Source: Betaproteobacteria bacterium (lineage in GTDB: Bacteria; Pseudomonadota; Gammaproteobacteria; Burkholderiales; SG8-41). From it: a stretch of 64,000 nucleotides of DNA. The position numbers and the translations under genes are program-made. The stretch is taken from contig OMIN01000152.1 of assembly GCA_900299145.1 (NCBI GenBank), forward strand, positions 14,886 to 78,885, read 5' to 3'. Under the pieces are notes generated by a model, which was not told where the DNA came from, made no database searches, and saw only the letters and a program-made list of their open reading frames with translations. Positions 1 through 64,000 of the stretch are shown here, in pieces (the first letter of the stretch is position 1; every line of letters starts with the position of its first letter).

Positions 1-832
1 GCCCGGCGTGGATTTCGAGACACGGATTTTTGCCAAGGTGAACGCGGCTGAACTGCTGCGCAAGGAATTGTCGAAGCCTGGTTACTGTTGCGAAGTGATT
101 TCGCTGGGTGCGAACACCGATCCTTATCAGCCCGCCGAGCGCCGGCTCAATATCACGCGCGGCGTGCTTCAGGTTTGCTCTGAGTTTAATCAGCCGGTGG
201 GCATCGTCACCAAGAACGCGCTGATCGAACGCGATCTGGATATTCTCGTGCCGATGGCGCAGCGGCGGCTGGTGAATGTATTTATTTCGGTGAACAATCT
301 GGATCACGACATCGCGCGCAAACTGGAGCCGCGCTGCGTCGCACCCGCACGGCGGCTCGAAGCCATCCGCGCGTTGTCGCGGGCGGGTGTGCCGGTGGGT
401 GTGCTGGTGGCGCCGGTGATTCCGTTCCTGAATGACGATCAGTGCGAAGCCGTGCTTGAAGCCGCGCACGCGGCAGGCGCGACCCAGGCTGGCTATGTCA
501 TGCTGCGCCTGCCGTTTGAAGTAAAAGCGCTATTCCGCGACTGGCTTGAACGGCACTATCCGCTCAAGGCAAAACACGTGATGAGCCGCGTGCACGAGCT
601 GCGCAGCGGGCGCGACAATGATCCAAACTTCGGCAGCCGCATGCGCGGACAGGGTGAGTTCGCGGAACTGCTGTCCAAGAGGTTCGCGCTTGCCAAGCGG
701 CGCATCGGTTACGACATGCGCGAACGCATGCTGCGTAATGCGGCGCTGGATACGACGTTGTTTCGGGTGCCGGTTGTGCAGGAGCCGCAGTCGTTGCAGG
801 GGCCGGAAAAGAGACAGATGAGCTTGTTCTAA
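1..832 (+). CDS. Radical SAM protein (PA0069/SplB-like family), 5' end outside window
   Basis: ORF 8..832 stays open to the window edge. The translation (LGANTDPYQP..., VTKNALIERDLDIL, APVIPFLND) matches my memory of this family. The TAA stop at 830-832 lies in AT-element copy 1. Confidence 0.8.
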   Translation, partial: PGVDFETRIFAKVNAAELLRKELSKPGYCCEVISLGANTDPYQPAERRLNITRGVLQVCSEFNQPVGIVTKNALIERDLDILVPMAQRRLVNVFISVNNLDHDIARKLEPRCVAPARRLEAIRALSRAGVPVGVLVAPVIPFLNDDQCEAVLEAAHAAGATQAGYVMLRLPFEVKALFRDWLERHYPLKAKHVMSRVHELRSGRDNDPNFGSRMRGQGEFAELLSKRFALAKRRIGYDMRERMLRNAALDTTLFRVPVVQEPQSLQGPEKRQMSLF

Positions 833-858
833 GTATTTGTTTTTATTGAATTATTTAT
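830..858 (+). repeat. AT-rich dispersed element, copy 1
   Basis: TAAGTATTTGTTTTTATTGAATTATTTAT. Its TAA is the stop codon of the radical SAM gene. Confidence 0.8.
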
Positions 859-3321: not shown

Positions 3322-3403
3322 GATCGGTCTCGTGTGACGGAAGTGAATGAAGTATGGGAATGTCCGCATTCTACTCCACGCCTCATGCGACAATAGCGGC
3401 ACG

Positions 3404-5086
3404 ATGTTGCGCTTGACTGAACTGAAACTTCCACTCGATCACACCGATGACGCGCTGCGCGCAGCGATCATCGAGCGGCTGGATATCAATGAACACGCGC
3501 TGCTGCGCTACTGCGTTTATCGCCGCGCGGTGGATGCGCGCAAGCGCGGCTCGATTCAGTTCACTTACACCCTCGATGCCGAAGTCGCTGACGAAGAGAC
3601 AGTTTGGATTAGGAATAAAAAACATAATAAAAACAAATACTTGGATAAATCCCCCGACACCGGCTACCGCTTTGTCACGCACGCACAACCGAATTTGAAA
3701 GAGCGGCCCGTGGTGATCGGCAGCGGCCCCTGCGGATTTTTTGCCGGACTGCTGCTGGCGCAAATGGGTTTCCGGCCCATCATTCTGGAACGCGGCAAAA
3801 TCGTGCGTGAGCGCACGCAGGACACGTGGGGCTTGTGGCGGCGCTCGACGCTGAACCCGGAATCGAACGTACAGTTTGGCGAAGGTGGCGCGGGCACGTT
3901 TTCCGACGGCAAGCTCTACAGCCAGATCAAGGACCGGCGTTTTCTGTCGCGCAAGGTGCTCACCGAATTCGTCAAGGCTGGCGCGCCGGAAGAAATTTTG
4001 TACGTGGCGCATCCGCACATTGGCACCTTCCGGTTGGTGGCCATGGTGGAGTCGATGCGCGAAACGATTACCGCGCTGGGTGGCGAAATCCGGTTTGGCT
4101 GCAAGGTAAGCGATATTGAAGTCGATGGCACGGACGGCCGGCAAGTGCGCGCCGTGCATCTCGCTGGTGGTGAACGCATTGCCGCCAGGCACGTGGTGCT
4201 GGCGGTGGGGCACAGCGCGCGCGACACCTTCTCGCTGTTGCATCAGCGTGGTGTATACATGGAGGCAAAGCCGTTTTCGATAGGCTTTCGCATCGAGCAC
4301 CCACAGTCGCTGATCGATGCCGCCCGCTGGGGCCAATTTGCCGGCCACAAGCTGCTGGGCGCGGCGGACTACAAGCTGGTGCATCACTGTGAAAATGCGG
4401 CCCTGCGCCAGCAAAGCCGCTCGGTCTACAGCTTTTGCATGTGCCCCGGCGGCACCGTGGTGGCGGCCACGTCTGAAGTGGGCCGCGTGGTGACCAACGG
4501 CATGAGCCAGTATTCGCGTAACGAACGCAACGCGAATGCAGGGCTTGTGGTGGGCATAACCCCGAAAGATTTTTCGATGCCACCGAAAAGCCATTCGCAG
4601 CCGCGGGAACACGCGCCCGGCCACGTGCTGGCCGGTGTGGATTTTCAGCGCCAATGGGAATCGGCGGCGTTTGTGGCGGGTGGTGGCAACTACAACGCGC
4701 CCGCGCAACGCGTCGGCGATTTTCTCGCCGGGCGTGCATCGCTGGCGCAGGGCAAGGTTGCGCCGTCCTACAAGCCCGGCGTGCGCTGGACGGATGTGTC
4801 GGCATGCGTGCCTGACTACGCGGCGGCCGCGATTCGCGAGGCGCTGCCGGCACTGGACCGCAAGTTGAAAGGCTTTGCAATGGCCGATGCCGTGCTGACG
4901 GGTGTGGAGACACGCACCTCGTCACCGGTGCGCATTACGCGCGATACCGCATATGTGAGCATCAACACGCGCGGGCTGTATCCCGCGGGCGAGGGCGCGG
5001 GTTACGCGGGCGGCATCCTGTCGGCGGCGGTGGACGGGATTGAAGTGGCGGAGGCGGTGGCGTTGAATATCGTGAATCAGTTCTAG
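3404..5086 (+). CDS. FAD/NAD(P)-dependent oxidoreductase (COG2509-like)
   Basis: Dinucleotide-binding motif VVIGSGPCGFFAGLLLA and C-terminal GLYPAGEGAGYAGGI. Start taken at ATG 3404 (MLRLTELKL). Carries in-frame AT-element copy 2. Confidence 0.75.
   Translation: MLRLTELKLPLDHTDDALRAAIIERLDINEHALLRYCVYRRAVDARKRGSIQFTYTLDAEVADEETVWIRNKKHNKNKYLDKSPDTGYRFVTHAQPNLKERPVVIGSGPCGFFAGLLLAQMGFRPIILERGKIVRERTQDTWGLWRRSTLNPESNVQFGEGGAGTFSDGKLYSQIKDRRFLSRKVLTEFVKAGAPEEILYVAHPHIGTFRLVAMVESMRETITALGGEIRFGCKVSDIEVDGTDGRQVRAVHLAGGERIAARHVVLAVGHSARDTFSLLHQRGVYMEAKPFSIGFRIEHPQSLIDAARWGQFAGHKLLGAADYKLVHHCENAALRQQSRSVYSFCMCPGGTVVAATSEVGRVVTNGMSQYSRNERNANAGLVVGITPKDFSMPPKSHSQPREHAPGHVLAGVDFQRQWESAAFVAGGGNYNAPAQRVGDFLAGRASLAQGKVAPSYKPGVRWTDVSACVPDYAAAAIREALPALDRKLKGFAMADAVLTGVETRTSSPVRITRDTAYVSINTRGLYPAGEGAGYAGGILSAAVDGIEVAEAVALNIVNQF
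3614..3644 (-). repeat. AT-rich element, copy 2 (inside the FAD oxidoreductase CDS, in frame)
   Basis: AATAAAAAACATAATAAAAACAAATACTTGG, translated as NKKHNKNKYL. Confidence 0.75.
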
Positions 5087-5118: not shown

Positions 5119-5203
5119 CTGTCATTCCCGCGAAGGCGGGAATCCATAAGCCGTCGCCTGTGGCACGTTTGTTCTGGGTTCCCGCCTGCGCGGGAACGGC
5201 AAG
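5119..5203. repeat. REPIN-type inverted pair of REP palindromes
   Basis: CTGTCATTCCCGCGAAGGCGGGAATCCATAAG ... CTGGGTTCCCGCCTGCGCGGGAACGGCAAG. Confidence 0.8.
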
Positions 5204-7815: not shown

Positions 7816-7842
7816 TAACTATTTGATTTAATTAATATTTTC
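7816..7842 (+). repeat. AT-rich element, copy 3
   Basis: TAACTATTTGATTTAATTAATATTTTC. It fills the whole 30-bp spacer between two minus-strand genes. Confidence 0.7.
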
Positions 7843-10143: not shown

Positions 10144-10169
10144 GTCATTCCCGCTTTTGCGGGAACGAC
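10144..10169. repeat. Solo REP palindrome
   Basis: GTCATTCCCGCTTTTGCGGGAACGAC. Confidence 0.7.
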
Positions 10170-10199
10170 TGTGGTGGATTGTCCGCGCAATTGATAGCG

Positions 10200-11555: not shown

Positions 11556-12529
11556 TCCGCCTTGATTTTGGCGGCTTTTGCCACCTTGCTCCAGCGCGCG
11601 AATTCCTGTTTCAGGAATGCGGTGTAGGCCTCGGGTGAAGCTGAGGTCATCGGTTCGAATCCGCCAGAGATGAATTTTTCCTTGAGTTCGGGTGCGTGTG
11701 CGGCTTTGGTGATGGCGCCATGCAGCCGCTCGACGATGATACGCGGGGTTTTCGCCGGCGCCATGATCGCGTACCAGTTGGTGGATTGCAGCGCTGGGAA
11801 ACCCTGCTCGGCCACCGTCGCCACCTCCGGCAGCAAGGGGCTGCGCCGCTCGGGCGTGATTGCCAGCGCGCGCAGCTTGCCGCTTTTCACCGAGGGGAAG
11901 AGCACGGGCAAATCCATCGCCATGCCCTGCACGTGGCCGCCCAGCAAATCGGTGAGTGCAGGCGCGGCACCCTTGTAGGCGACAGCCTGTATCTTGATAC
12001 CCGCGGTAAGGTTCATCAACTCGATCAGCATGCGTGTCGTGCCGCCCGCGCCCGCCGTGCCGAAATCCAGCTTGCCCGGCTGGGTCTTGGCCAGCGCCAC
12101 CAGTTCCTTCAACCCACGCGCGGGCAGCGCCGGATGCACCACGATCAACACTGGACTCATCACCACAGTGGTGATACCCGCGAAATCGTTGATGCTGTCG
12201 TAGGGAATCTTCGCGTAGGTAAACGTGGTCATTACCAGCGGGCTCAAACCCGCGAGGCCGATGGTATAACCATCGGGTGCAGCCTTGGCAACATGATCGG
12301 TACCAATGATCGCGTTGGCACCCGGACGATTCTCGACAATGAAGTTTGTGCCCAGACTTTCGCTGAGCTTGGGCGCAATCAGACGCGCAATGATGTCGTT
12401 GGCACCGCCGGGTGGAAAGCCAATCACCAGGCGCACGGGTTTCGCGGGATATTCCTGTGCAAAAGCCGCTACGGTGAGTAACAGACTTGTTGCGCCAATG
12501 AGATTTCGTAAGTAATTGTTTTTATTCAT
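11552..12529 (-). CDS. Bug/TctC-family substrate-binding protein
   Basis: Signal peptide followed by YPAKPVRLVIGFPPGGAND and AYKG. The start codon and first 8 codons lie inside AT-element copy 4. Confidence 0.85.
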   Translation of the reverse strand: MNKNNYLRNLIGATSLLLTVAAFAQEYPAKPVRLVIGFPPGGANDIIARLIAPKLSESLGTNFIVENRPGANAIIGTDHVAKAAPDGYTIGLAGLSPLVMTTFTYAKIPYDSINDFAGITTVVMSPVLIVVHPALPARGLKELVALAKTQPGKLDFGTAGAGGTTRMLIELMNLTAGIKIQAVAYKGAAPALTDLLGGHVQGMAMDLPVLFPSVKSGKLRALAITPERRSPLLPEVATVAEQGFPALQSTNWYAIMAPAKTPRIIVERLHGAITKAAHAPELKEKFISGGFEPMTSASPEAYTAFLKQEFARWSKVAKAAKIKAE

Positions 12530-12540
12530 TATTTATGTAG
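12509..12540 (+). repeat. AT-rich element, copy 4 (contains a Bug gene start codon)
   Basis: TAAGTAATTGTTTTTATTCATTATTTATGTAG. The reverse strand encodes MNKNNYLR. Confidence 0.8.
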
Positions 12541-15464: not shown

Positions 15465-15525
15465 GGCGGGCTCCGGGGCAAATTTGCTATAGGTGGAGGA
15501 ATTATAAGGGTTTAGTGCCGGCCTG

Positions 15526-15551
15526 AAATATTCAATTAAAACATATAGTTA
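15526..15551 (-). repeat. AT-rich element, copy 5
   Basis: AAATATTCAATTAAAACATATAGTTA. Confidence 0.7.
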
Positions 15552-17259: not shown

Positions 17260-17290
17260 TAAGTATTTGTTTTTATTGTATTTTTATGAA
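17260..17290 (+). repeat. AT-rich element, copy 6
   Basis: TAAGTATTTGTTTTTATTGTATTTTTATGAA, between convergent Bug genes. Confidence 0.8.
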
Positions 17291-18267: not shown

Positions 18268-18341
18268 AATAGGTTCTCCAGCGTGGCTACAGGATGGCAA
18301 TGCAGGCTTTTCGATACGATATCAAATCGTAGTGCGGTATA

Positions 18342-18374
18342 GGTAGGGTGGGCAAAGCGAAGCGTGCCCACGCG
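18342..18374. repeat. Second REP class (GTGGGCA...TGCCCAC hairpin)
   Basis: GGTAGGGTGGGCAAAGCGAAGCGTGCCCACGCG. Confidence 0.6.
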
Positions 18375-18611
18375 CAATCCATGTAGCACTTGGCGTCAGG
18401 CAAGTGGGCAGAATTACAGCGCCGGATTAGCCTTGCCGTGCCGGTTACCGGCATTGGGTAATGTCTGGTAGCTGCGGCACATTGTCCGCTGCCCAATCAT
18501 CCGCATGCTATTACGGAAGAAGTACCAAGCCGGAAGGTGTGGGCGTGTATGATGAGGTAGGCGTGAGCGCGATTCGCTTTGCGCACAATATGTCCGCGCA
18601 GGAGCATTTTC

Positions 18612-19748: not shown

Positions 19749-19865
19749 CAAATATTACCAGCACCAATCAACCTAAATGAATGCTTACATTATTCGTTCC
19801 TATTGAGCTTACTGCACGCCGATTTAGATTGCGGGGCCATGCCTGCGTTTAACCTCGGCAACCAC

Positions 19866-21075: not shown

Positions 21076-21105
21076 TAAGTATCTGTTTTAATTGAATTAT
21101 TTTTA
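21076..21105 (+). repeat. AT-rich element, copy 7
   Basis: TAAGTATCTGTTTTAATTGAATTATTTTTA, in a divergent intergenic region. Confidence 0.8.
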
Positions 21106-24718: not shown

Positions 24719-24748
24719 TAACTATTTGTTTTTATTAAATATTTTTTC
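24719..24748 (+). repeat. AT-rich element, copy 8
   Basis: TAACTATTTGTTTTTATTAAATATTTTTTC. Confidence 0.8.
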
Positions 24749-27168: not shown

Positions 27169-27197
27169 ATAACTATCTGTTTTTATAGGGAATTTTA
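27169..27197 (+). repeat. AT-rich element, copy 9
   Basis: TAACTATCTGTTTTTATAGGGAATTTTAA. Its 3' end includes the stop codon of the DinB-family gene (minus strand). Confidence 0.7.
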
Positions 27198-29751: not shown

Positions 29752-30585
29752 ATGCTGATCTGCGATTCACAAGTCCACGTCTGGGGTGCCAACACGCCGG
29801 AGCGCCCGTGGCCCGCCCGCGCGCACGCACAACGCGAGATTCCGCTCGGCCACGAAGAACTGCTGCGCGAGATGGACGCCGCCGGTGTCGAGCGGCTGGT
29901 GATCGTGCCGCCCTCGTGGGAGGGCGACCGCAACGATCTCGCGTTTGCGGCGGTGAAGGCGAATCCGAACCGGTTCGCCATCATGGGGCGCTTCAACCCG
30001 GAAGCGCCGGACGCCAAACAAACCATCAAGGGCTGGCGCGATCAGCCAGGCATGCTCGGCATGCGCTTCACATTTCACATTCCCGTGCTGCAACAGCCGC
30101 TGATCGACGGCAAATTCGATTGGGTGTGGGCCGAAGCTCAAGCGCAGGGCATCGTCATGATGATCCTCGTGCCGCAGCACATGGTCGAAGTCATTGACCG
30201 CGTGGCCGAGCGCTACCCAAAACTCAAAATCGTGATGGATCACATGGCGCTCACCAGCGGCAAACCGTTCGACGAGACCTTCCGCGATTTCGACAAACTG
30301 CTGCCGATTGCCAAACGCCCCAATGTCGCGGTCAAGGCTACCGCGCTGCCGTGCTATTCCGCCGAGCCGTACCCGTTCACGCGCGTGCAGGCTTACGCGC
30401 GTAAGGCGTACGAGGCATTCGGGGGCAAGCGAACATTCTGGGGCAGTGATCTGTCGCGCTCGCCGGTACCGTACCGTGAGCAGATTGATATGTGGCTGAA
30501 AGACGCGCCGTGGCTCAAGGCAGAGGACAAGGAATGGGTAATGGGGCGCGGCATTTGCGAATGGCTGGGATGGAAAATTCCGTAA
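29752..30585 (+). CDS. Amidohydrolase-2-family protein
   Basis: MLICDSQVHVW start and the DHMA motif typical of the metal-dependent amidohydrolase_2 family. The TAA stop lies in AT-element copy 10. Confidence 0.8.
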   Translation: MLICDSQVHVWGANTPERPWPARAHAQREIPLGHEELLREMDAAGVERLVIVPPSWEGDRNDLAFAAVKANPNRFAIMGRFNPEAPDAKQTIKGWRDQPGMLGMRFTFHIPVLQQPLIDGKFDWVWAEAQAQGIVMMILVPQHMVEVIDRVAERYPKLKIVMDHMALTSGKPFDETFRDFDKLLPIAKRPNVAVKATALPCYSAEPYPFTRVQAYARKAYEAFGGKRTFWGSDLSRSPVPYREQIDMWLKDAPWLKAEDKEWVMGRGICEWLGWKIP

Positions 30586-30610
30586 AAAATACAATAAAAA
30601 CAGATAGTTA
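30583..30610 (-). repeat. AT-rich element, copy 10
   Basis: TAAAAAATACAATAAAAACAGATAGTTA. Its first TAA is the amidohydrolase stop codon. Confidence 0.8.
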
Positions 30611-30631
30611 TGATCGACTATCGACTATCGC

Positions 30632-31773: not shown

Positions 31774-31854
31774 TGTCATTCCCGCGAAAGCGGTAATCCA
31801 TAACACATTGGCAGAGGGCACATCGTATAGATTCCCGCTTTCGCGGGAATGACA
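31774..31854. repeat. REPIN-type element
   Basis: TGTCATTCCCGCGAAAGCGGTAATCCATA ... TATAGATTCCCGCTTTCGCGGGAATGACA. Confidence 0.85.
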
Positions 31855-31934: not shown

Positions 31935-33698
31935 CTACAGGGCCGCTTTGTCGAGCGGCACCCGAATCTCACACATAACTCCGCCCCCCTCCAAATTCCG
32001 CGCCGAAGCTCTACCCCCATGAAACTCCGCAATCAACCGCACAATATAGAGCCCCAACCCCAAATGCGGATTCTCGCCGCTGGCCTCCTTACGCACGGAA
32101 ATCATCGAATCAAACAATCGGTCGGCAATCTCCGGCGGCAGCGGCGGGCCGCTATTGCTGAACTGCAGCACGGCCTCGTTGCCTTCGCGTTGCAGGCTGA
32201 TGGCGATGGGCGTGCCCGGCGTAGCGAAGTCGGCGGCGTTGGCGGCGAGTTTGTCTAACATTTGCGCGAACAGGTCGGGTGCACCGGTTAGCGTGACCGG
32301 CTGTTCGGTCATCGTCAGCTCGAACTGGCATTGCGGATAAGCGCCACCGCCGTTGCTACCATAGCCGCTGACGCAGCCCGCGAGCACAGCCTTGGCGTCG
32401 AACGGTGTGCGTTCTTCGTTGCGCACGGCCTGTTCGAGGCGCGTAGCTTCGGCCATGCGGGTGAGAATGGTTTCGAGCCGGTTGAGCCCGCCCTCGGCGC
32501 GCTCCACGTACACGCTGACGTCCTGCGGCATGTTGTGCAGTTTGACGTTGTCGAGTGAGGAGCGTACCACCGCAATGGGTGTGCGCAGTTCGTGGCTTAA
32601 ACGTTGCGCGAGTTTTTCGAGATGGGCGTTGTATTGCGCGAGCCGTTCCAGCATGGTGGAGAACGCGCGCGACAGGTCGCCGATTTCGTCGTTGGCGTTT
32701 TCGGCGGTGGCGAGGCCCTGTATGCGGCCTTGCGAATCGATGGCGTTTTCGGCCTCGTCGCGCAGCCGCCGCAGCCGTGTGCTCACGCGCGAGGCGAACA
32801 GCAGCAGCACCAGCGCCGCCGCGGCAAACGCGATCAGTGTCACCGCCGCCAGTTGTTGAAACGCGCGGTTGCCGAGCGAAACAATCGCATCGGTGTTTTC
32901 CTCGACCACCACCGCGCCGACGACTTTGTCACCGACCCACACCGGATGCACGGCCGATAGAATGACGTTGCGCCCCTGCGGTCCGGCGCGGCGCCGCAGA
33001 CCCGGCGTGCCGTCGAGCGCGCGTTCGAGTTCGCGGCCGCCGAACACCACGTCGTTGGGGATGAATTCTTCTTCGGGATGCGCGGGCGGCGGGAACATGC
33101 GTTTGAACAGCGGCTCAAGCGCAATGTTCACCACTTTTTCCAGCGGGCCAAAACTCACGGCGCTGCCACTGTATTTTTGCTTGTTGTCGAGATTGCCTGC
33201 GGTGGCCACCAGTTGCAGCTTGGTGTCGATCACCCAAATACGCAGACCCGCGCGTGCGAGACCGGTGACGATGACTCGAATTTCGTCGGTGACTTTGGTG
33301 GCGGGTGGCGCGGGCTCCGGCGGTGCTGGAGGTGCGAGGGGTTTAGGAGGTTCCAACTCGCCGGTGTGCTCGGCTTCGGCTGCGGTGGGGATTGGGGTGG
33401 TTACTTGTAATTCTTTGATTTCATTTATCTTTTTTGATGGGCCCTGCAGTTCCAATAATCGGGGCCGATCCTGCAACGCGGTGGCGATGCCGCGCGCTGC
33501 GGCAATCACTTGCTGCTCCTGATTTTCGCGCAGCAGTTTTTCCATCGCCTTCACATAGGTGTAACCCACCCAGGGGATGACCAGCAGCACCAGCGCCACT
33601 AACACCACTTGCCCGTGCAGGCCGAAGAGGCGGGGGAGGCGCGGCAGGCGAGAGGATTTTTTTGTGGACACGGATTGGGTTGGCGGCATATTCATCAA
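31935..33698 (-). CDS. Sensor histidine kinase
   Basis: N-terminal TM, a second TM, H-box SHELRTPIAV, N/G boxes and a C-terminal HATPase domain. Contains a diverged in-frame AT-element copy (11). Confidence 0.85.
   Translation of the reverse strand: MMNMPPTQSVSTKKSSRLPRLPRLFGLHGQVVLVALVLLVIPWVGYTYVKAMEKLLRENQEQQVIAAARGIATALQDRPRLLELQGPSKKINEIKELQVTTPIPTAAEAEHTGELEPPKPLAPPAPPEPAPPATKVTDEIRVIVTGLARAGLRIWVIDTKLQLVATAGNLDNKQKYSGSAVSFGPLEKVVNIALEPLFKRMFPPPAHPEEEFIPNDVVFGGRELERALDGTPGLRRRAGPQGRNVILSAVHPVWVGDKVVGAVVVEENTDAIVSLGNRAFQQLAAVTLIAFAAAALVLLLFASRVSTRLRRLRDEAENAIDSQGRIQGLATAENANDEIGDLSRAFSTMLERLAQYNAHLEKLAQRLSHELRTPIAVVRSSLDNVKLHNMPQDVSVYVERAEGGLNRLETILTRMAEATRLEQAVRNEERTPFDAKAVLAGCVSGYGSNGGGAYPQCQFELTMTEQPVTLTGAPDLFAQMLDKLAANAADFATPGTPIAISLQREGNEAVLQFSNSGPPLPPEIADRLFDSMISVRKEASGENPHLGLGLYIVRLIAEFHGGRASARNLEGGGVMCEIRVPLDKAAL
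33408..33436 (+). repeat. AT-rich element, copy 11 (diverged, inside the histidine kinase CDS)
   Basis: TAATTCTTTGATTTCATTTATCTTTTTTG aligns best with copy 3. Encodes KKINEIKEL on the gene strand. Confidence 0.5.
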
Positions 33699-34906: not shown

Positions 34907-36192
34907 TCCGACGCCTCTTCGCCATCGGCTTTATTTTCTTTTGCGTGTCGATTGCGTGGATGGTGCTCGCGGGTGCGACCTCAACCCGAACGCACTCGGC
35001 GGATTCGAGTCTGAAGTCGCGCGTGTCGCAATTGTGGGGCGCGCCACAGGCGCAGTTGCCGCCGCACATCAGTACCGAGGAAAAAATCCGCCGTAAAGTG
35101 GAAAGCACGGAGAACGGCAACAAGGTCGAGAAAATCGTCGATGACGTGATTGTCCGACCCATCGCCCTGGATTCGAGCGACATCAAAGTTGATCTTAAAC
35201 TCGATCATCGGCAAAAAGGCCTGCTGTGGTATTCCACCTATGCCGTGACGTTTGACGCGACGTACGCGTTTGCCAATGCGGAGAACGTGCCGCGCGAGAT
35301 CAAGGTGGCGCTGCCGTTTCCAGCTGAGCGTGCGGTGTTCGACGATCTGCGCTTTGATCTGGAAGGCGCGACCTGGTTGTCACCACCCACGCCGGGCGAC
35401 GGCAAAATCATCGGATGGACGCGGCTGGCGCCCGGCGAGAAGGCGACGCTGCGCGTGCGCTATCGCAGTCAAGGTCTGGATCGCTGGGCGTATAAATTCG
35501 GCAGCGGCGTGTCGGAAGTCAAAAATTTCAAACTCGCCATGCGCACGGATTTCGAGGCGATTGATTTCCCGGAAGAGGCGATTTCGCCCACCGCCAAACA
35601 GCGTGACGGCAACGGTTGGGCGCTGACTTGGGAATACCGCCGTTTAGTTTCCGGCGTCAACATCGCCATGGCCATGCCGGAAAAATTGCAGCCCGGCCCG
35701 CTCGCCAGTCAGATTTCGCTGTTCGCGCCGGTGTCGCTGTTTTTCTTCATCGTTGTATTGCTGACCATTGGCGTGGTTCGCAATGTTGATATACACCCGA
35801 TGCACTTCTTCTTTGTGGCGGCGGCGTTCTTCGCGTTTCACTTGCTGTTTGCGTATCTGGCCGATCAGGTTTCCATTCACCTGGCGTTTGGTGTCGCGGC
35901 GGCAGTGTCGATGCTGCTCACCATCAGCTATCTGCGCATTGTGTTCGGCGCGGCGTTTGCCTTCCTTGCTGCCGGCACTGCGCAGTTGGTCTATCTGGTA
36001 TTGTTCTCGTATGCGTTTTTCTTCAAGGGATTGACCGGCTTGGCGATCACCATCGGCGCGATCGCAACGCTGTTCGTGTTGATGCAAGTTACGGCGCGGG
36101 TGAACTGGAACATGGTGTTTGCCGGGCGAAATGCACGCACAATTGCGCCGGAAATACCCGCAGCGCCGGAATCACCTGAGCCAGTGTCTTAA
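34903..36192 (+). CDS. CreD-like inner-membrane protein
   Basis: N-terminal TM, a large periplasmic domain and a C-terminal TM bundle. IHPMHFFFVAAAFFAFHLLFAYLADQ parallels E. coli CreD LHPMQYLLVGLSLVMFYLLL as I remember it. Confidence 0.7.
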   Translation: MIRRLFAIGFIFFCVSIAWMVLAGATSTRTHSADSSLKSRVSQLWGAPQAQLPPHISTEEKIRRKVESTENGNKVEKIVDDVIVRPIALDSSDIKVDLKLDHRQKGLLWYSTYAVTFDATYAFANAENVPREIKVALPFPAERAVFDDLRFDLEGATWLSPPTPGDGKIIGWTRLAPGEKATLRVRYRSQGLDRWAYKFGSGVSEVKNFKLAMRTDFEAIDFPEEAISPTAKQRDGNGWALTWEYRRLVSGVNIAMAMPEKLQPGPLASQISLFAPVSLFFFIVVLLTIGVVRNVDIHPMHFFFVAAAFFAFHLLFAYLADQVSIHLAFGVAAAVSMLLTISYLRIVFGAAFAFLAAGTAQLVYLVLFSYAFFFKGLTGLAITIGAIATLFVLMQVTARVNWNMVFAGRNARTIAPEIPAAPESPEPVS

Positions 36193-36218
36193 AAATTACA
36201 TAAAAAAACAAAGAGTTA
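36190..36218 (-). repeat. AT-rich element, copy 12
   Basis: TAAAAATTACATAAAAAAACAAAGAGTTA. Its TAA is the CreD-like stop codon. It forms the spacer before the A2M gene. Confidence 0.65.
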
Positions 36219-39200: not shown

Positions 39201-42081
39201 TGAAAAGCGCATTCAGCTTGATGAAAAGCCGTTCACCATCGCTGCTGCGGGTGCGAAAGTGGCGTTGGCCACTGACGCGCCGGGCAGTTACGCCTATGTC
39301 GTGCGCGACGCGGTGGGGCAGGACTTGGCGCGCGTGTCATATGAAGTGGCGGGTGCGGCGAACCTTACGCGCTCGCTGGAGAAAAACGCTGAGTTGCAGG
39401 TAAAGCTCAGCAAAAAAGACTTTGCGGCAGGCGAAGACATCGAACTGTCGATACAAGCGCCGTATGTCGGCTCGGGCCTTATCACTATCGAGCGGGAGCG
39501 CGTCTTTGCGCACGCGTGGTTCACCAGCAAGACCACGGCCTCCACGCAGAAGATCACGTTACCCAAGGATTTCGAGGGCAACGGTTACGTGACGGTGACG
39601 TTCATCCGCGATGCAGGATCGGATGAAATTTACGCGAGTCCGCTAGCTTACGGCGTGCAACCTTTTTCGGTGAATCTGGACCGCCGCAAACTCAAAGCCA
39701 CGGTGAAGGCCCCCGACCTGGTGAAGCCCGGCGACACCATCAAATTCAGGCACTCGACCAATCAGCCGTCGCGTATCGTGGTATTCGCGGTGGATGAAGG
39801 CATTCTGCGGGTGGCGCGTTACAAGACGGCAGATCCGCTGGGTTTCTTTTTCCAGAAGCGCGCGCTGGAGGTGAAAACCTTCCAGATACTTGATTTGGTT
39901 TTGCCGGAATTTAAGCGCTTCATGGCGGCGGCTGCGCCCGGCGGCGACGGCGATGGCGCGCTGGGCAAGCATCTGAATCCGTTCAAGCGTAAGAACGACA
40001 AACCGGCAGCGTATTGGTCGGGCATTATCGAAAGCGGCCCGCAGGAGCGCGAACTCACGTGGCAGGTGCCGGAAACCTTTAACGGCACGCTGCGGGTGAT
40101 GGCGGTGGCGGTGAACGAGGATTCCATCGGCGTGTTCGAGAAGAAAACCTTGTCTCGTGGCGACTTTGTGTTGTCACCGAACGCGCCGTTGACGGTGACA
40201 CCGGGCGATGAATTCGATGTAAGCGTCGGCGTGGCGAACAACGTGGCAGGTTCGGGTGCGGATGCGCAGATCGCGGTGACGCTGGCGGCTTCGCCGCATC
40301 TGGAAATCGTGGGTGCCGCGATCAACACCATCAAAGTGGGCGAACTGCGCGAAGGTGTCACCAGCTTCAAGGTGCGCGTGAAGGACGAATTGGGCGCGGG
40401 GACGCTGAACTTCAGCGCGGCTGGCATGAACAAGAGCGCAAAGCTGGGTACCAGCATCAGCGTGCGTCCGGCACAGCCGCATATCACGTTGCTGACTGCG
40501 GGCATTGTACGCAATGGAACAGCCGAAGCGCCGGTGACGCGCAATCTGTATCCGCACTATCGCAAGCTGGAGGCGAGCATTTCGCATGTGCCGTTGGCGC
40601 TGGCGCATGGCCTCACGGCGTATCTGCAAGGCTTCCAGTATTCGTGCACCGAGCAACTGGTGAGCATGGGCATGCCTGCGCTGGTGCTTGGCAACCGGCC
40701 GGAATTTGGTTATGTGAAATCGAAGGACTACAAAACGCTTGACGATCTGATTAACGTGCTACGAGGCCGGCAAAACGGCGAGGGCGCGTTTGGTCTGTGG
40801 GCGGCGAATGCGCACGTGGTGGATTATGTGTCGGTCTACGCCATGCACTTTTTGATTGAGGCGCGCGAGCGGGGCCGTGCTGTGCCCAATGACATAATTG
40901 TCAATGGAAACAATTACTTACGATCATTGGCCAGCAACGACAGCGGCACACTCGCCGACGAACGCACACGCGCCTACGCCATCTATGTGCTGACGCGGCA
41001 GGGCATAGTCACCACCAACTTTGCGGCGGCGGTGCAAAAGCGGTTGGAAACGAATCACCCCAAGGTGTACGCGCAGGACATTGCCACCGCCTACCTTGCC
41101 GCAAGTTATCAGTTGATGAAGCAACAGCGGCTGGCGGATCAGTTGATTGCCGGCGTGACGTTTGAAAAGCGCCCCGCAGACGGTGGAGCCTACATTGACA
41201 CACTCACGTCCAACGGCAAATTGCTGGATGTCCTCGCGCGGCATTTCCCCGAGCGGCTGGCGAAGGTTTCGCCCAGTGTGGTGGAAAGCATGCTGAAGGA
41301 CATTGCCGCAGGCGGTTACAACACGCACTCTGCCGGCAACGCGATACTGGCGTTTGATGCTATGGCGGCTGCAAGTGAAAAGCTGCCGCCGGGCACCTTG
41401 GCCGCCGCCGAAGTGCTGCGCAATAACAACACGCGCGGGTTGGTTCTGCCTCCGAATGCCGTGCCTCGTGCCAGTTTCTCGGTGGACGCGGCGAAGCTGC
41501 AATTCACCAACAAGGCGAATCTGCCCGCGTATTACGTGGTCGAGCAAACCGGTTTCGAGCGCGGCCTGCCGGAGAAAGAAATCAAGAATAGCCTTGAAAT
41601 CCTGCGCGAGTATGTCGATGCCAAGGGCAATCCGGTGAAATCGGTGAAGGTTGGCGACGAAATTGAAGTGCGGTTGAGGTTCCGCGTCATTGGCCGCGAG
41701 GGTGTGGACAACGCGGCGCTGGTGGATTTGTTGCCCGGCGGATTTGATCTGGTGCTGAACACTGCGCCCGCGCAGCAACAGGAGGGTGAAGGTGAGGGAC
41801 GGGAAGGACGCGGTGAAGCGGAAAACCGCAAGTGGCGCGCGCCGATTGGGATCAAGGGCACGCAGCAGCGTCCGATATGGCAGCCTGACTACGCAGACCT
41901 GCGCGAAGACCGTGTGGTGCTCTACGGTTCAGTCAGCAAGGACATCCAGGAATTCGCCTACCGCATCAAGGCCACCAACACTGGTACGTTTGTGGTGCCG
42001 CCGGCGTACGGCGAGTCGATGTATGAGCGCAGTGTACAGGCGCGGTCGCTGGGGGCGAAGATGACGGTGGAAAAGCGCTAG
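36232..42081 (+). CDS. Bacterial alpha-2-macroglobulin-family protein (1949 aa), thioester type
   Basis: Very large MG-domain protein. CTEQ thioester motif at 40645-40656 (FQYSCTEQLV). Followed by pbpC, as in yfhM-pbpC operons. N-terminal TM anchor. Confidence 0.9.
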   Translation: MSIAAPSSTPTGLLRRLLRPLIGDVQWLAPGWLRGLGNAAGFFAMAFSSWVRSDMRRAAIAGGVGLALIAGGVAGKAWYDRLPKPHEVTVEVVTPDPTPVDQPNAKPDPLMIKFSESAATLAGVGKDVTTGIEVEPRIDGTWKWADDRTLTLTPKTDWPVGTEVVVTLAKKGLFAEHVRLQDYRVKFTTAPFVAKITEAQFYQDPADPASKKIVATVNFTHPVDAADFEKRVVLREEGKDGVILGLGADDKKFKVTYDKFKVNAYIHSEPMPIPPQPVKIAVTVEAGAKSSRGGNGITAPVKQSVTVPGLYSLALQGMSLTLAENERLEPDRILMVNLSADTHEKEVAGKVRAWVLPLHHPNTKPEERKQPFAWNNPQQIGPEVLAQSEPLKLEAVPAEREHVQQHGFKYNAEAGRYVYVKVEKGMKSFGGYLMEKERDGIMRVQRYPRQLRIASQGALLALSGEKKLAVLVRDVEGIRFEVGRLLPQQLQHLVTMSDGGFAKPNFDKGFDDDNLAERYTQVEDAPPSEPGKPNYLALDLGKYLDGEGGRRGIFFVKVESYDQKNKRTTGAVDKRLVVVTDLGMVVKRAIDGSQDVFVQSIATGQPVAGTAIEVLGRNGQVIASQTTDAAGRARLPDFAGFTREKAPAVYVARKAGDTSFLPYERNDRVIDFSRFDVGGVNSSADAGKLSAFLFSDRGIYRPGEEIRVGMIVKAADWASRITGAPLEYELTDARGLVLRKDKIKLSASGFEEVRHATQDTSPTGDYTVSLYIVKDGQRDSQLGSVTVKVQEFMPDRLKMSARFSRESIEGWVTPQDLKANVSLQNLFGTPAEARRVTATMTLQPALLSFPKYRDYQFYDPQFAKEGFAEPLSDSKTNDKGEVELDLNLARFAKATYRLHLVTQGFEADGGRGVSAEAATLVSNMPFLVGYKADGDLNYVSRASKRSVELIAIDPKAAKTDARDLKLIHFERKFVSVLTKQANNTYKYESREKRIQLDEKPFTIAAAGAKVALATDAPGSYAYVVRDAVGQDLARVSYEVAGAANLTRSLEKNAELQVKLSKKDFAAGEDIELSIQAPYVGSGLITIERERVFAHAWFTSKTTASTQKITLPKDFEGNGYVTVTFIRDAGSDEIYASPLAYGVQPFSVNLDRRKLKATVKAPDLVKPGDTIKFRHSTNQPSRIVVFAVDEGILRVARYKTADPLGFFFQKRALEVKTFQILDLVLPEFKRFMAAAAPGGDGDGALGKHLNPFKRKNDKPAAYWSGIIESGPQERELTWQVPETFNGTLRVMAVAVNEDSIGVFEKKTLSRGDFVLSPNAPLTVTPGDEFDVSVGVANNVAGSGADAQIAVTLAASPHLEIVGAAINTIKVGELREGVTSFKVRVKDELGAGTLNFSAAGMNKSAKLGTSISVRPAQPHITLLTAGIVRNGTAEAPVTRNLYPHYRKLEASISHVPLALAHGLTAYLQGFQYSCTEQLVSMGMPALVLGNRPEFGYVKSKDYKTLDDLINVLRGRQNGEGAFGLWAANAHVVDYVSVYAMHFLIEARERGRAVPNDIIVNGNNYLRSLASNDSGTLADERTRAYAIYVLTRQGIVTTNFAAAVQKRLETNHPKVYAQDIATAYLAASYQLMKQQRLADQLIAGVTFEKRPADGGAYIDTLTSNGKLLDVLARHFPERLAKVSPSVVESMLKDIAAGGYNTHSAGNAILAFDAMAAASEKLPPGTLAAAEVLRNNNTRGLVLPPNAVPRASFSVDAAKLQFTNKANLPAYYVVEQTGFERGLPEKEIKNSLEILREYVDAKGNPVKSVKVGDEIEVRLRFRVIGREGVDNAALVDLLPGGFDLVLNTAPAQQQEGEGEGREGRGEAENRKWRAPIGIKGTQQRPIWQPDYADLREDRVVLYGSVSKDIQEFAYRIKATNTGTFVVPPAYGESMYERSVQARSLGAKMTVEKR
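40894..40920 (-). repeat. AT-rich element, copy 13 (inside the A2M CDS, in frame)
   Basis: ATAATTGTCAATGGAAACAATTACTTA. Together with the following CGA, the 16-nt string AAACAATTACTTACGA (40908-40923) is identical to copy 4 read in reverse. Encodes IIVNGNNYLR. Confidence 0.65.
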
Positions 42082-45957: not shown

Positions 45958-47148
45958 ATGACGCCGCTGATAAAGCCCATGTGGATCGCCATGCTGCTGG
46001 TGGTGATCAACATGCTCGGCATGCGCGGCAGCAAGATTACGGTGTCGCTGATGTCGCTGGAACTCGGCGCTTCCCAGTTCATGGTAGGCGTGATTGTCGC
46101 GCTGTATTCGCTGCTGCCGATGTTCCTTGGCCTTTATGCGGGGAAGCTGACAGACCGGCTTGGCGTGCGGCTGCCAATTATTTTTGGCTCCACGGGCATT
46201 GCGCTGGGCCTGGCCATCCCGGGTTTCTTTCCGGTGCTGCCGGCGCTATTCGTGTCGGCGGCGGCGATTGGCGCGGCGCACATTTTTTACAACGTGTCGA
46301 TCCAGAACGCCATCGGCCTGATGAGCCCGAAGGAAGACCGCGCGCGTAATTTCAGCAATTTCGCGATGATGATGTCGATCAGCGGCTTTCTTGGTCCGCT
46401 GGTCAGCGGCATGCTGATAGATGCGTTTGGCCATGCCAAAACCTATCTGTGCCTGACGCTGGGGCCGGTTGCCGGCGTGATCATCATGCTGGCGTTACCG
46501 AAATTCGCGGCCAATCTGCGCGGCGGGGCGGAGGGCGGTAATGGTCGCAACGGTGGCAAGGGCGGCAAGGGTGGCGAAGACGAGGGTATCAAGCTTTCGG
46601 GCTTCGGGTTGCTTGGCAATAAGCCGCTGCGCCGCGTGATCGTGATGAGCGGCATACTGATGACGGCGCTGGATTTGCTGCATTTTTATATGCCGATCTA
46701 CGGGCATTCCATTGGCCTTGCCGCTTCCAAAATCGGCATGATCATGGCGGCGTTTTCGGCGGCGGCGTTCGTGGTGCGCGTATGGATGCCAGACATTGTC
46801 AAACGTTTCGGCGAACACAAAGTGCTGACGTTCGCGCTGGGCGTGGCGGCGGTGGCGTATCTGATTATTCCGTGGATTAAGCAGGTGCCGCTGCTGATGA
46901 TGATCACGTTCACGCTGGGCCTCGGCATGGGCTGCGGCCAGCCGCTGATCATGATGATGATCTACAACCGCGCACCTGAAGGCCAGTCGGGCGAAGCGTT
47001 GGGTTTGCGCCAAACCATCAATCACTTCACGCACATGGCAGTGCCGCTGGCGTTCGGCGCCATTGGCTCGGCGTTCGGTGTGTGGCCGGTGTTTCTTACC
47101 AATTCGCTCATGCTGATGGGTATCGGCTATGTCAGCAGAAGACGATAA
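45958..47148 (+). CDS. MFS transporter
   Basis: Start at ATG 45958 (MTPLIKPMW). 12-TM pattern. Gly/Lys-rich central loop (GGNGRNGGKGGKGGEDEG). The TAA stop lies in AT-element copy 14. Confidence 0.8.
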   Translation: MTPLIKPMWIAMLLVVINMLGMRGSKITVSLMSLELGASQFMVGVIVALYSLLPMFLGLYAGKLTDRLGVRLPIIFGSTGIALGLAIPGFFPVLPALFVSAAAIGAAHIFYNVSIQNAIGLMSPKEDRARNFSNFAMMMSISGFLGPLVSGMLIDAFGHAKTYLCLTLGPVAGVIIMLALPKFAANLRGGAEGGNGRNGGKGGKGGEDEGIKLSGFGLLGNKPLRRVIVMSGILMTALDLLHFYMPIYGHSIGLAASKIGMIMAAFSAAAFVVRVWMPDIVKRFGEHKVLTFALGVAAVAYLIIPWIKQVPLLMMITFTLGLGMGCGQPLIMMMIYNRAPEGQSGEALGLRQTINHFTHMAVPLAFGAIGSAFGVWPVFLTNSLMLMGIGYVSRRR

Positions 47149-47175
47149 GTAATTGTTTTTATTGAATAATTTCTA
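47146..47175 (+). repeat. AT-rich element, copy 14
   Basis: TAAGTAATTGTTTTTATTGAATAATTTCTA. Its TAA is the MFS stop codon. Confidence 0.8.
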
Positions 47176-49696: not shown

Positions 49697-49724
49697 TAAA
49701 AAAATCAATTAAAACAAATACTTA
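49697..49724 (-). repeat. AT-rich element, copy 15
   Basis: TAAAAAAATCAATTAAAACAAATACTTA. Confidence 0.8.
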
Positions 49725-57068: not shown

Positions 57069-57097
57069 TAAGTATTTGTTTTTATTGATATTTTTTT
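57069..57097 (+). repeat. AT-rich element, copy 16
   Basis: TAAGTATTTGTTTTTATTGATATTTTTTT, on the left flank of the kinase islet. Confidence 0.8.
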
Positions 57098-58228: not shown

Positions 58229-58257
58229 AAAAAATATCATTTAAAAACAAATGCTTA
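58229..58257 (-). repeat. AT-rich element, copy 17
   Basis: AAAAAATATCATTTAAAAACAAATGCTTA, on the right flank of the kinase islet, inverted relative to copy 16. Confidence 0.75.
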
Positions 58258-61929: not shown

Positions 61930-64000
61930 GTGCGCACCGACCTCGAACGTTTCTTCAGCCCCAAATCCATTGCGCTCATCGGCGCTTCACAAGATCTCAT
62001 CACCATCAGCGGCCAGCCGCTGTCGCACATGCTGAATCACGGTTACGGGGGCAAGCTGTATCCGGTGAACCCGCGATATCAGGACATCCTCGGCCAGAAG
62101 TGTTATCCATCACTCGCTGATGTGCCGGAGACGCCGGATCTTGCACTGATTCTGATCAACGCCTCTCGCGTCGCGGACATGCTCGAACAATGCGGCAAGA
62201 AGGGCGTGCCGTATGTGATTATTTTCAGTTCGGGTTTTTCCGAGACCGGCGCCGAAGGCGTGGCGCTGCAGAAAAAGCTCGTTGCCATTGCCGAGCAGTA
62301 CAACATCGGCGTCATTGGCCCCAACTGCCAGGGCATGATGAACGTTGCGGATAAAGTATGGGCGGGTTTCGGCTCCGTGTTTTTCACCAAAGAGTTCCCG
62401 GCGGGCGGCGTATCGATGGTGTCGCAGTCGGGCGGTTTTGGCTTCTCGGTGCTGGCGCTGTGCTCTGAGGGTGGGCTGGGTTTCCGGCAGATGGTCACCA
62501 CCGGCAATGAAATCGGCACCTCCACGCTGGAATTCATCGATTACTTTGTGCGCGACCCCGGCACGGACATCATCGCCTGCTATCTGGAAGGCGCGCGCGA
62601 CGTCAATCGCACGGTGGAAATCGGGCTAAAGGCGATGGATGCGGGCAAGCCCATTTTGATGTGGAAGGTGGGCAACACCGACGAAGGGCAAAAAGCCGCA
62701 GCCTCGCACACCGCCAACCTCGGCGGCGCCATGGCACTTTACAAGGCTGCGTTCAAACAAAGCGGCATTATTCAGGTGGACGACGTGCAGGATGTCGTCG
62801 ACTATGGCCGCATGTTCCGCTGCGGCAAATTGCCCAAAGGCAACCGCATCGCGATGATTACGGTGTCGGGTGGCGCGGGCATATTGATGACCGACGAGTG
62901 TGTGTCGGGCGGAATGCGGCTCGCGCAACTCGCGTCGGAAACGACTGAAAAGCTGCGCGAGTTTGTGCCATCGTACGGCTCGCTCGCCAATCCGGTGGAT
63001 GTCACCGCGTCTATCTTCAACGACCTCGCATTGATACGCCGCACGTTGCAAGCCATCGTCGACGATCCGGGTGTCGATTGCATCGCGCTGCTCAATGCCT
63101 CGTTGCAAGGCGAAATCGCCACCAAAATCGCCGCCGAAATCATTGCCATTGCGAAGACGACCGACAAGCCCATCGCCTGCGCATGGAGCGCGCGCAATGA
63201 CATGGCGAAAGATGCGTATGCCGCACTGGATGCCGCGCACATCCCGCACTATAAGTCGCCGGTGCGCTGCGGGCGTGCGTTTGCCGTCTTGAGCGGTTAC
63301 GCCGAGGCCAAGCGGCGCATCGCGGCACAGCGTAATGAGCAGCCGTTGGTTATAGAAAAAACGCAAATAAAACAAATACTTACCGGAAGGTCAGCTGACG
63401 TTACCGAATATGAAGCCAAGAAGGTATTGGCCGAATACGGCATCCCGGTGACGCAGGAAGCTCTCGCCACCACACGTGAACAAGCCGTGGCGATTGCGAA
63501 GAAAATTGGCTACCCGGTGGCGATCAAGGTTCAGTCGCCCGATATCTCGCACAAGACCGAAGCCAAGGCCGTAAAGCTCGGGTTGAATTCCGACGCCGAA
63601 CTCGCGGCGGCATACGACGAAGTCATCGCCAACGCCAAGGCCTACAACGCCAAGGCGCAACTCGATGGCGTGCTGGTGCAGGAAATGTTGCGCGGCGGCA
63701 CCGAGGCGATACTCGGCATCACCAACGATCCGCTGTTCGGGCCGGCGGTGATGTTTGGTTTGGGTGGCATCTTTGCCGAGATCATGAAGGACGTATCCTT
63801 CCGCCTTGCACCGGTAACGCCGGCCATGGCGCGCGAAATGATTTCGGAAATCAAAGGTTATCCGCTGTTGACGGGCGCCCGCGGCCGCGGGCACGCGGAT
63901 GTCGATGCGCTGGCCGACGCGATCGTGAAGTTATCCGCGCTAGCCGTGGACTTGAAAGATCATGTGGCCGAGCTGGATATCAATCCGTTGTTCGTCATGG
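61930..64000 (+). CDS. ADP-forming acyl-CoA synthetase / acetate--CoA ligase-family protein (CoA-binding + ATP-grasp), 3' end outside window
   Basis: Not in the ORF track because there is no stop inside the window. Manual translation from GTG 61930, just after the in-frame TGA at 61918-61920, gives MRTDLERFFSPKSIALIGAS...GKLYPVNP...GPNCQG...SQSGG...EYEAKKVLAEYGIPV...GYPVAIKVQS. Carries in-frame AT-element copy 18. Confidence 0.8.
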   Translation, partial: MRTDLERFFSPKSIALIGASQDLITISGQPLSHMLNHGYGGKLYPVNPRYQDILGQKCYPSLADVPETPDLALILINASRVADMLEQCGKKGVPYVIIFSSGFSETGAEGVALQKKLVAIAEQYNIGVIGPNCQGMMNVADKVWAGFGSVFFTKEFPAGGVSMVSQSGGFGFSVLALCSEGGLGFRQMVTTGNEIGTSTLEFIDYFVRDPGTDIIACYLEGARDVNRTVEIGLKAMDAGKPILMWKVGNTDEGQKAAASHTANLGGAMALYKAAFKQSGIIQVDDVQDVVDYGRMFRCGKLPKGNRIAMITVSGGAGILMTDECVSGGMRLAQLASETTEKLREFVPSYGSLANPVDVTASIFNDLALIRRTLQAIVDDPGVDCIALLNASLQGEIATKIAAEIIAIAKTTDKPIACAWSARNDMAKDAYAALDAAHIPHYKSPVRCGRAFAVLSGYAEAKRRIAAQRNEQPLVIEKTQIKQILTGRSADVTEYEAKKVLAEYGIPVTQEALATTREQAVAIAKKIGYPVAIKVQSPDISHKTEAKAVKLGLNSDAELAAAYDEVIANAKAYNAKAQLDGVLVQEMLRGGTEAILGITNDPLFGPAVMFGLGGIFAEIMKDVSFRLAPVTPAMAREMISEIKGYPLLTGARGRGHADVDALADAIVKLSALAVDLKDHVAELDINPLFVM
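63355..63382 (-). repeat. AT-rich element, copy 18 (inside the acyl-CoA synthetase CDS, in frame)
   Basis: GAAAAAACGCAAATAAAACAAATACTTA, translated as EKTQIKQIL in the linker before the ATP-grasp domain. Confidence 0.75.

Follow-up and report, generated by a model that had tools for sequence, protein, structure and literature searches.

A dispersed AT-rich word inside a FAD-dependent oxidoreductase gene of uncultured Burkholderiales-type bacteria: a probable non-mobile site recognized at the level of DNA

The locus discussed here raises the question of how a short AT-rich sequence came to be read in frame inside an otherwise GC-rich gene. The window, i.e., the whole stretch of 64,000 nucleotides (64 kb) of contig OMIN01000152.1 that was analyzed, has a GC content of ~60%. 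Its open reading frame at 3347/3404..5086 (+ strand), which encodes a FAD-dependent oxidoreductase, contains the stretch AATAAAAAACATAATAAAAACAAATACTTGG at positions 3614-3644 on the + strand. The stretch is in frame and translated as ..VWIRNKKHNKNKYLDKSPDT.. (in a shorter excerpt, ..RNKKHNKNKYLDK..), ~20 residues upstream of the Rossmann motif VVIGSGPCG. The original prediction described it as a copy of a dispersed AT-rich element and interpreted it as an insertion tolerated in a linker, analogous to the in-frame Rickettsia palindromic elements (RPE). The stretch and its kinship to a dispersed element are found as stated, and the insertion is contradicted by the alignments presented below. 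We consider it likely that the element is a non-mobile, clade-specific AT-rich word that is recognized by a protein at the level of DNA and is kept by substitution together with selection or drive.

The element and its host gene

The host gene (3404..5086, + strand) encodes a COG2509-type FAD-dependent protein with the Pfam domains FAD-depend_C (E=3e-76) and DAO. The protein matches, over its full length, Vibrio VP0956 (E=2e-221), an uncharacterized homolog for which a crystal structure exists (PDB 3NLC). In the database, the oxidoreductase is called from ATG 3347, which gives 579 aa. Because all homologs, including that in PDB 3NLC, begin at the MLRL that is encoded from 3404, the true start is probably ATG 3404 (MLRL..), and the N-terminal 19 annotated residues (3347-3403) are probably not translated.

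The element copy in this gene occupies 3611..3650 (+ strand) and is composed of a left A/T arm, the core TAATAAAAACAAATACTTG and the right arm GATAAAT; it scores 51.7 bits with the position weight matrix (PWM) described below. The copy encodes residues R70-S83, of which N75-L80 are encoded by the core. An AlphaFold2 (AF2) model, which is of moderate confidence (mean pLDDT 61) and was used solely for the secondary structure of the N-terminal domain, shows a helix (residues 64-74) that ends here, followed by a turn (N75-Y79) and by a strand that begins at 80-82; together, these close the N-terminal domain. The presumed linker is, judging from the 3NLC alignment and the AF2 model, a helix-turn, i.e., the core-encoded segment is in the model a structured, sequence-variable piece of the surface and no added loop.

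The core CAATAAAAACAAATACTTA is matched 14 times in the 64 kb at ≤3 mismatches, compared to 0.00 matches expected from 100 shuffles. A PWM built from these 14 strong matches identifies 18 copies in the window, which corresponds to a mean density of ~1 per 3.7 kb, and all 17 AT islands of the window (≥80% AT over 30 nt) are copies of the element. The consensus is approximately WWWW-AAAAAWWAT-CAATAAAAACAAATACTTA-TRAWAAW, and the strand that reads CAAT has no G. An exact-core scan of metagenomes yielded at least 120 loci, of which, among the matches listed, ~97 have a GC content of ≥50%, like the window. Because the loci were picked by the core alone, their flanks offer an unbiased view of the extent of the element. 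Among the matches listed there are 93 distinct, independent copies, in which conservation extends over positions -13 to -1 (..AAAAAWWAT) and +19 to +26 (TRAWAAW); outside -13..+26 the profile drops abruptly to the GC-rich background. The element is an asymmetric, solitary block of ~40 bp that is >85% AT, with ~27 bp strongly conserved.

Neither terminal inverted repeats nor a flanking target duplication were found in the flank profile of the 93 copies or in a repeat search. Folding as single-stranded DNA was not significant in seven of eight copies (z -1.07 to +0.98), and the single outlier pairs with unique flanking sequence. Rfam gave no match in the window at the gathering threshold. No paper of the searched literature contains 14- to 18-mers of the core in either strand; the AT-rich word of this clade is undescribed so far.

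Overlay of existing codons and constraint on the DNA

An insertion of the kind originally proposed was expected to leave an indel of 10-14 residues relative to orthologs, and none was found. In the protein alignment, not one of the 119 homologs is gapped within the nine core-encoded residues. Three segment lengths occur, i.e., 25 aa (74 homologs), 22 aa (42) and 24 aa (three); added DNA could make up at most 9 of the ~40 nt, and this in only part of the clade. The codons align one-to-one, e.g., GAA GGC GAC CGG CAC GTC in the outgroup L001 versus AAT AAA AAC AAA TAC TTA in the clade. Across 80 named genomes, including Rhodocyclales, Gallionellaceae, Burkholderiaceae and Pseudomonas, orthologs of ≤71% identity carry L-x-R-L-x-x-D-R-H-V-x-x-x-P-D-T at the site, at the same length and in GC-rich codons, and the PDB 3NLC protein aligns through the segment with a 2-residue difference. 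As counter-evidence to an insertion, the original prediction had named a Lys/Asn-rich segment of equal length, dissimilar in nucleotides to the element, in distant GC-rich genomes. The equal length and the lack of nucleotide similarity are indeed seen there, but the segment is not Lys/Asn-rich; the Lys/Asn-rich version is confined to the clade in which the nucleotide element is found as well.

The same relation is found in a second gene, which encodes an NDP-forming acyl-CoA synthetase. Here, the copy at 63356..63382 (+ strand) lies in an inter-domain linker and is read in the second open frame, as QIKQIL. It displays no indel relative to 120 homologs. In relatives the site reads KKTQSKQIL or EKNEIKQIL, and in distant homologs SSAVARKAL or KPAAAKML at the same length; the copy is conserved in the related loci L238 and L239. 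Both of the intragenic copies that were checked for indels are found in variable segments. Syntenic comparisons with L135 (3 sites) and with L238/L239 (3 sites) gave no clean presence or absence of a 40-bp unit, among few sites in moderately distant relatives (82-85% nucleotide identity between L135 and the window). For every window copy compared, these loci contain an ortholog, from which it is separated by substitutions or small indels. As judged from these alignments, the word is not a mobile insertion; in two genes it overlays pre-existing codons position for position. The proposed analogy to RPE fails also because the element is ~40 bp, non-palindromic and without significant folding.

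The overlay is old. Six orthologs with ~75% protein identity all keep the word, as AAT AAA AAC AAA TAC TTA or near variants (PWM 39-58 bits), and share a Burkholderiales-type neighborhood composed of an LVIVD-repeat gene, the oxidoreductase, a pseudouridine synthase and many TctC genes. In a neighbor-joining tree, calculated with the columns of the site masked, the NKNKYL-type sequences form one clade, which is sister to the ARLKDDRHV-type. Its members are known from metagenome contigs and are, where named, labeled "Burkholderiales bacterium". This topology indicates that the copy in the host gene arose once, in the ancestor of an uncultured clade of freshwater and soil bacteria of the Burkholderiales type. 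The identity at third positions of the six core codons is 0.889, compared to a gene mean of 0.574 and to 0.564 +/- 0.121 in windows of similar amino-acid identity, where the core ranks 7 of 529. Given the peptide NKNKYL, the probability of the codons observed is 5.5e-4; TTA makes up 2.1% of the Leu codons in this genome. These data demonstrate, at the level of aligned codons, that the word is maintained as a nucleotide sequence, down to its synonymous sites and to rare codons like TTA.

Release from this constraint can be followed in two settings. Homologs named Opitutae or Verrucomicrobia (L087 and L088) are found in contigs rich in PSCyt/PSD, sulfatase and DUF1501 genes at ~53% GC; in the protein tree they nest inside the element clade, which is suggestive of a transfer between phyla. 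No further copy of the word is found in the 21 kb of each of these two loci. At the site, a stepwise decay is observed, from KKLNKNRNL to KKRNQNRNL (AAT CAA AAC AGA AAT TTA) and to EKLKKSGQV (AAG AAA AGC GGG CAA GTT), in line with a gene that left the word-bearing lineage by transfer and then lost the constraint on its DNA. In L236, an in-clade locus where the family is present, the intragenic copy is lost and the site reads ASLETSRHL in GC-rich codons (10190-10250). A 43-bit copy (9922-9968) is instead found ~250 bp away, directly upstream of the ATG of the gene, where it is absent in other relatives; this looks like positional turnover of a site with a regional function. The two cases show that the word decays or relocates once the constraint is lifted. 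As a separate observation, the oxidoreductase genes of L087 (10001-11617) and L088 (10001-11617) are ~70% identical to that of the window and reside among genes of a Verrucomicrobia/Planctomycetes-type content.

Placement of the word and its possible function

The distribution of the word was determined from 161 copies in the window and in GC-rich related loci, of genomes that are ~90% coding. The gene context was obtained with a simple codon-usage caller, which agrees with the database gene calls where both exist. The copies are mainly intergenic (145 of 161), and the intragenic ones are sense in 13 cases and antisense in three. Between co-directional genes, 43 copies are sense and 32 antisense, while 30 are found in divergent and 27 in convergent spacers, without an orientation bias; in the window, which is part of a single replichore, eight copies are on the + and ten on the - strand. 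Copies lie closer to stop codons (median distance 15 nt) than to start codons (median 91 nt), and 33 of 134 copies overlap the stop; the family stays clear of coding and of promoter-proximal DNA. At a median length of 53 nt, convergent spacers with a copy are nearly filled by the element.

The 18 copies in the window are spaced at a mean distance of 3.7 kb with a coefficient of variation (CV) of 0.43, which is more even than expected from uniform placement (P=5e-5) or from placement limited to spacers (P=3e-4 to 6.5e-4). Within ≤1 kb of the anchor copy, the metagenome loci have 0-2 extra copies in 115 kb; the density at 1-7 kb would predict ~12. The family is present in all in-clade loci, and 1.2 Mb of GC-rich outgroup DNA gave one borderline hit. 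As originally noted, the five intragenic copies of the window (3617, 12509, 33408, which is weak, 40894 and 63356) all have CAAT.. on the coding strand. This orientation is open in two frames (NKNKYL and IKTNT), and the opposite one is closed by TAA, as well as by TGA in copies that have the consensus T as the preceding base.

We infer that the word functions in the form of double-stranded DNA, to which a putative conserved, sequence-specific protein would bind. If the function is regional and does not require an exact position, a single copy every few kb would suffice and close neighbors would not be kept. Copies, built by point substitution together with selection or biased transmission, would accumulate where they do least harm, i.e., in spacers next to stop codons, in the n-regions of signal peptides and in variable segments of protein surfaces, where the frame read N-K-N-K-Y-L would be used.

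A specific mechanism can be suggested only tentatively. Because the family has the set of properties that was documented in Pasteurellaceae for the uptake signal sequences (USS) and in Neisseriaceae for the DNA uptake sequences (DUS), a signal for recognition or uptake of self-DNA was chosen as the candidate. An uptake machinery would prefer fragments that bear the word, and homologous recombination would then spread the better-matching alleles (molecular drive). Findlay & Redfield (PMC2817400) found that USS/DUS originate through mutation and recombination and not through insertion, and described them as evenly spaced, non-palindromic, present in both orientations, scarce in coding sequence and found at poorly conserved residues (PMC2817400). 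The word resembles them in its large excess over chance, its lack of a palindrome and its similar numbers in both orientations, as well as in its in-place origin at poorly conserved residues and in permissive frames. It is also more evenly spaced than random, clade-specific and often found at gene 3' ends. The extended Haemophilus USS is ~30 bp long and has AT-rich flanks. Unlike USS/DUS, of which 35-65% are intragenic, the word is intragenic in 10% of cases, and its membership in this kind of signal is not established. HIP1 of cyanobacteria, a very dense, non-mobile 8-bp GC-rich palindrome of unknown function, is similarly over-represented in coding and non-coding DNA and conserved at orthologous positions without being mobile; the word differs from it in being long, asymmetric, AT-rich and sparse.

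A number of points weigh against a site kept by substitution and drive, or against an uptake signal in particular. The test of synonymous sites comprises six codons in six sequences, and the neighbor-joining tree has no support values. The even spacing leans partly on the four weak copies; the 14 strong copies alone give a CV of 0.57 (P=0.02). The segment varies in length solely by an indel of 0-3 codons beneath the left arm, which demonstrates that small changes in length do take place. To derive the core from an outgroup-like sequence takes ~20 substitutions, which demands strong drive or selection, and the core may also stem from templated replacement. The sole account offered for these substitutions is strong drive or selection acting on an already Lys-rich segment, such as KRSKKDKHL at the site in outgroup L010. 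Compared to USS/DUS, which have a GC-containing core of 9-12 bp at 0.8-0.9 copies per kb, the word has ~27 conserved bp in a ~40-bp AT-rich block and a three times lower density (~0.27 per kb). It also does not form the close dyad-symmetric pairs that are frequent among intergenic USS/DUS copies and act as terminators.

Nearly as likely as an uptake signal, and a serious if doubtful alternative, is an architectural site for a nucleoid-associated or topology-related protein (IHF-like, H-NS-like or gyrase-associated) that is kept by purifying selection at each locus. The role of such a site would be to organize the chromosome or to insulate transcription units; the same has been proposed for the IHF-containing RIP and the bacterial interspersed mosaic elements (BIME) of enterobacteria. 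The extreme AT content and the many A-tracts in a 60% GC genome are in line with this proposal, as are the copies at gene 3' ends and in convergent spacers, their even spacing on the scale of operons and the lack of enrichment of canonical terminators in the window. The turnover within ~250 bp and the independence of orientation fit a regional role at the level of DNA. Positions -3..+2 match the WATCAA half of the IHF consensus, but the TTR half is missing from the word. A near-invariant, asymmetric sequence of ~27 bp far exceeds the specificity that known nucleoid proteins need, there is no known candidate protein, and an architectural role gives no reason for writing the site into coding sequence instead of leaving it out. 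The word shares with the repetitive extragenic palindromic sequences (REP)/BIME and with RIP, for which binding of nucleoid or topology proteins has been proposed, that it is a short intergenic repeat concentrated at the 3' ends of genes and in convergent spacers. REPs have the form of GC-rich imperfect palindromes and are associated with RAYT transposases; the word, unlike REP/BIME, is >85% AT, asymmetric and solitary.

An element that acts in the transcript, i.e., a promoter, a factor-dependent terminator or an A-rich site for Hfq, S1 or RNase E in mRNA leaders and 3' untranslated regions, is improbable. The proximity of copies to stop codons, and at times their position directly before start codons, would suit such a function, as would the (ARN)n-like triplets AAT AAA AAC AAA of the forward strand and the chance-level occurrence of canonical intrinsic terminators in the window. 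Against it stand the nearly equal use of both orientations between co-directional genes (43 versus 32) and the presence of copies in convergent and divergent spacers alike. There is, furthermore, no sigma-70 match, hairpin or Rfam family, and a terminator at codons 70-83 of a 560-codon gene would harm that gene.

A small non-autonomous mobile element, similar to RPE or to miniature inverted-repeat transposable elements, that was inserted in frame and tolerated in a linker is very unlikely. It would account for a dispersed repeat that is sharply set off from its GC-rich flanks, for intragenic copies only in the stop-free orientation and frames, for the 3-codon indel that some members of the clade have beneath the left arm and for the inverted pair of copies that flanks a kinase island. 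Yet, two independent genes lack an insertion-sized indel and align codon by codon with the outgroups, and the copies are devoid of terminal inverted repeats, target duplications, a hairpin and clean empty sites in syntenic relatives. Being old, orthologous and evenly spaced, they are the opposite of what bursts of transposition leave, and the gene within the inverted pair encodes a protein kinase and not a transposase. With RPE the word shares its dispersal in frame in conserved genes, the stop-free orientations and frames and the location in surface or variable segments. RPE are ~100-150 bp long, palindromic and seen as extra residues relative to orthologs; the word, at ~40 bp and without a hairpin, adds no insertion-sized segment.

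Least credible of all is the view that the enzyme itself needs a Lys/Asn-rich peptide and resembles the repeat by accident: KKHNKNKYL is conserved in 65 of the 119 homologs, the Lys-rich outgroup L010 and the helix-turn structure of the segment would agree with such a need, but the synonymous positions are conserved and the codons rare, the same 27-40 nt have 17 further occurrences in the window, the majority of them non-coding, distant orthologs, including the crystallized one, carry unrelated residues, and the peptide decays in genomes without the repeat family and is replaced by ASLETSRHL in L236.

Several other candidates were tried and rejected. Matches similar to sigma-70 promoters and to intrinsic terminators occur at or below the shuffled expectation, and none coincide with copies. 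A tRNA-related element was discarded (the window has zero tRNA or tmRNA genes), as were the ends of an insertion sequence (the gene within the inverted pair at 57069 and 58231 encodes a Ser/Thr kinase, not a transposase). A phage origin was set aside: the 25 matches in viral contigs are mostly in contigs of 24-49% GC with poor flanks, consistent with chance. The AT-rich islands in the 1.2 Mb of outgroup loci hold no recurrent word, i.e., no outgroup "dialects" were found.

Returning to the preferred reading, i.e., a non-mobile word recognized as DNA, maintenance by substitution and selection or drive would imply about a thousand copies per genome of a long recognition sequence. To our knowledge, only two bacterial families carry such uptake words, and both are host-associated. 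One may speculate, with some doubt, that the word is a third independently evolved signal for uptake or self-recognition, unusually long and AT-rich, in uncultured freshwater and soil Burkholderiales. If so, sequence-specific natural transformation would occur in abundant environmental bacteria, and molecular drive would be strong enough to rewrite ~9 codons of conserved enzymes. The locus provides an unusually clean demonstration of how a signal at the level of DNA overwrites protein, with about nine codons of a structured helix-turn in rare codons. It also offers two natural controls, i.e., the decay after the apparent move of the gene to another phylum and, in one relative, the relocation by 250 bp. 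In practical terms, the word is a precise lineage marker in metagenomes and a handle for binning, and the K/N-rich peptides that it creates should not be annotated as functional motifs or insertions.

Remaining copies and other features of the window

Among the other copies, several are found at gene ends and in convergent spacers. That at 830..856 (- strand; the 27 conserved nt are given) fills a convergent spacer and provides, with its TAA at 830-832, the stop codon of the radical-SAM gene; the copy at 17260..17286 (- strand) fills a convergent spacer of 50 nt. The copy at 47146..47172 (- strand) lies between co-directional genes, in antisense, and its TAA (47146-47148) is the stop codon of an MFS gene. 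At 30584..30610 (+ strand) the copy overlaps the stop codon of the upstream gene and has a decayed ortholog in L135. Directly after it, at 30613-30639, a short tandem repeat of three units (ATCGACT/ATCGCTT) is found. In addition, several convergent gene pairs in the window (1-60000) are only 3-76 nt apart.

The intergenic copies further include those at 15525..15551 (+ strand), antisense to both flanking genes, at 21076..21102 (- strand), in a divergent region and with the best score of the window (62.5 bits), and at 49698..49724 (+ strand). The copy at 24719..24745 (- strand) has an orthologous copy in the relative L135. That at 27170..27196 (- strand) is degenerate and its ortholog in L135 perfect; what distinguishes them are substitutions and, in the left arm, a 14-nt indel. 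A weak copy (18.7 bits) at 36192..36218 (+ strand) resides between co-directional genes upstream of an alpha-2-macroglobulin gene. Within that gene, a further copy (40894..40920, + strand) is read in sense as NGNNYL, and a weak copy of 26 bits at 33408..33434 (- strand) is found in sense in a histidine-kinase gene (..KKINEIKEL..).

Two copies are associated with TctC genes. A diverged copy (34.8 bits) at 7816..7842 (- strand) ends 5 nt before the ATG of one such gene. That at 12509..12535 (- strand) holds the start codon and N-terminus (MNKNNYL, 12509-12529) of the TctC gene 11552-12529, where it supplies the n-region of the signal peptide. Other TctC paralogs in relatives begin ..FKNKYLNN.. 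(L084, 528-574). Genes for these solute-binding proteins (Bug family) are very dense, with at least eight in the window and its immediate flanks, and are found also in loci L081, L084-L090 and L236-L239; a high density of TctC genes is typical of some Burkholderiales.

The inverted pair mentioned above is composed of the copy at 57069..57095 (- strand), located 3 nt past the stop codon of an MR_MLE gene and with an orthologous copy in L238, and a diverged copy of 36.3 bits at 58231..58257 (+ strand), at the far edge of the Ser/Thr-kinase island. Between them, i.e., within the ~1.2-kb segment 57069-58257, the GC content is lower and a gene with a Ser/Thr protein-kinase domain is found at 57227-58135 (- strand). 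In L238 (1223-1269) the MR_MLE and UxuA-like genes are separated by a single orthologous copy only, which indicates that the kinase island was gained, or lost, right beside an element copy.

A second region of lower GC content (0.52-0.53 compared to ~0.60 for the window) extends over 18000-20000 and has weak gene calls. The window also harbors a separate family, a GC-rich palindrome similar to REP/BIME, TTCCCGCGAAAGCGGGAA, with 8 sites compared to 0.13 expected. These are found at 5125-5196, 10148-10165, 31779-31849, 48235-48305 and 59509-59526, three times as pairs ~53 nt apart, and in other intergenic regions than the AT-rich word.

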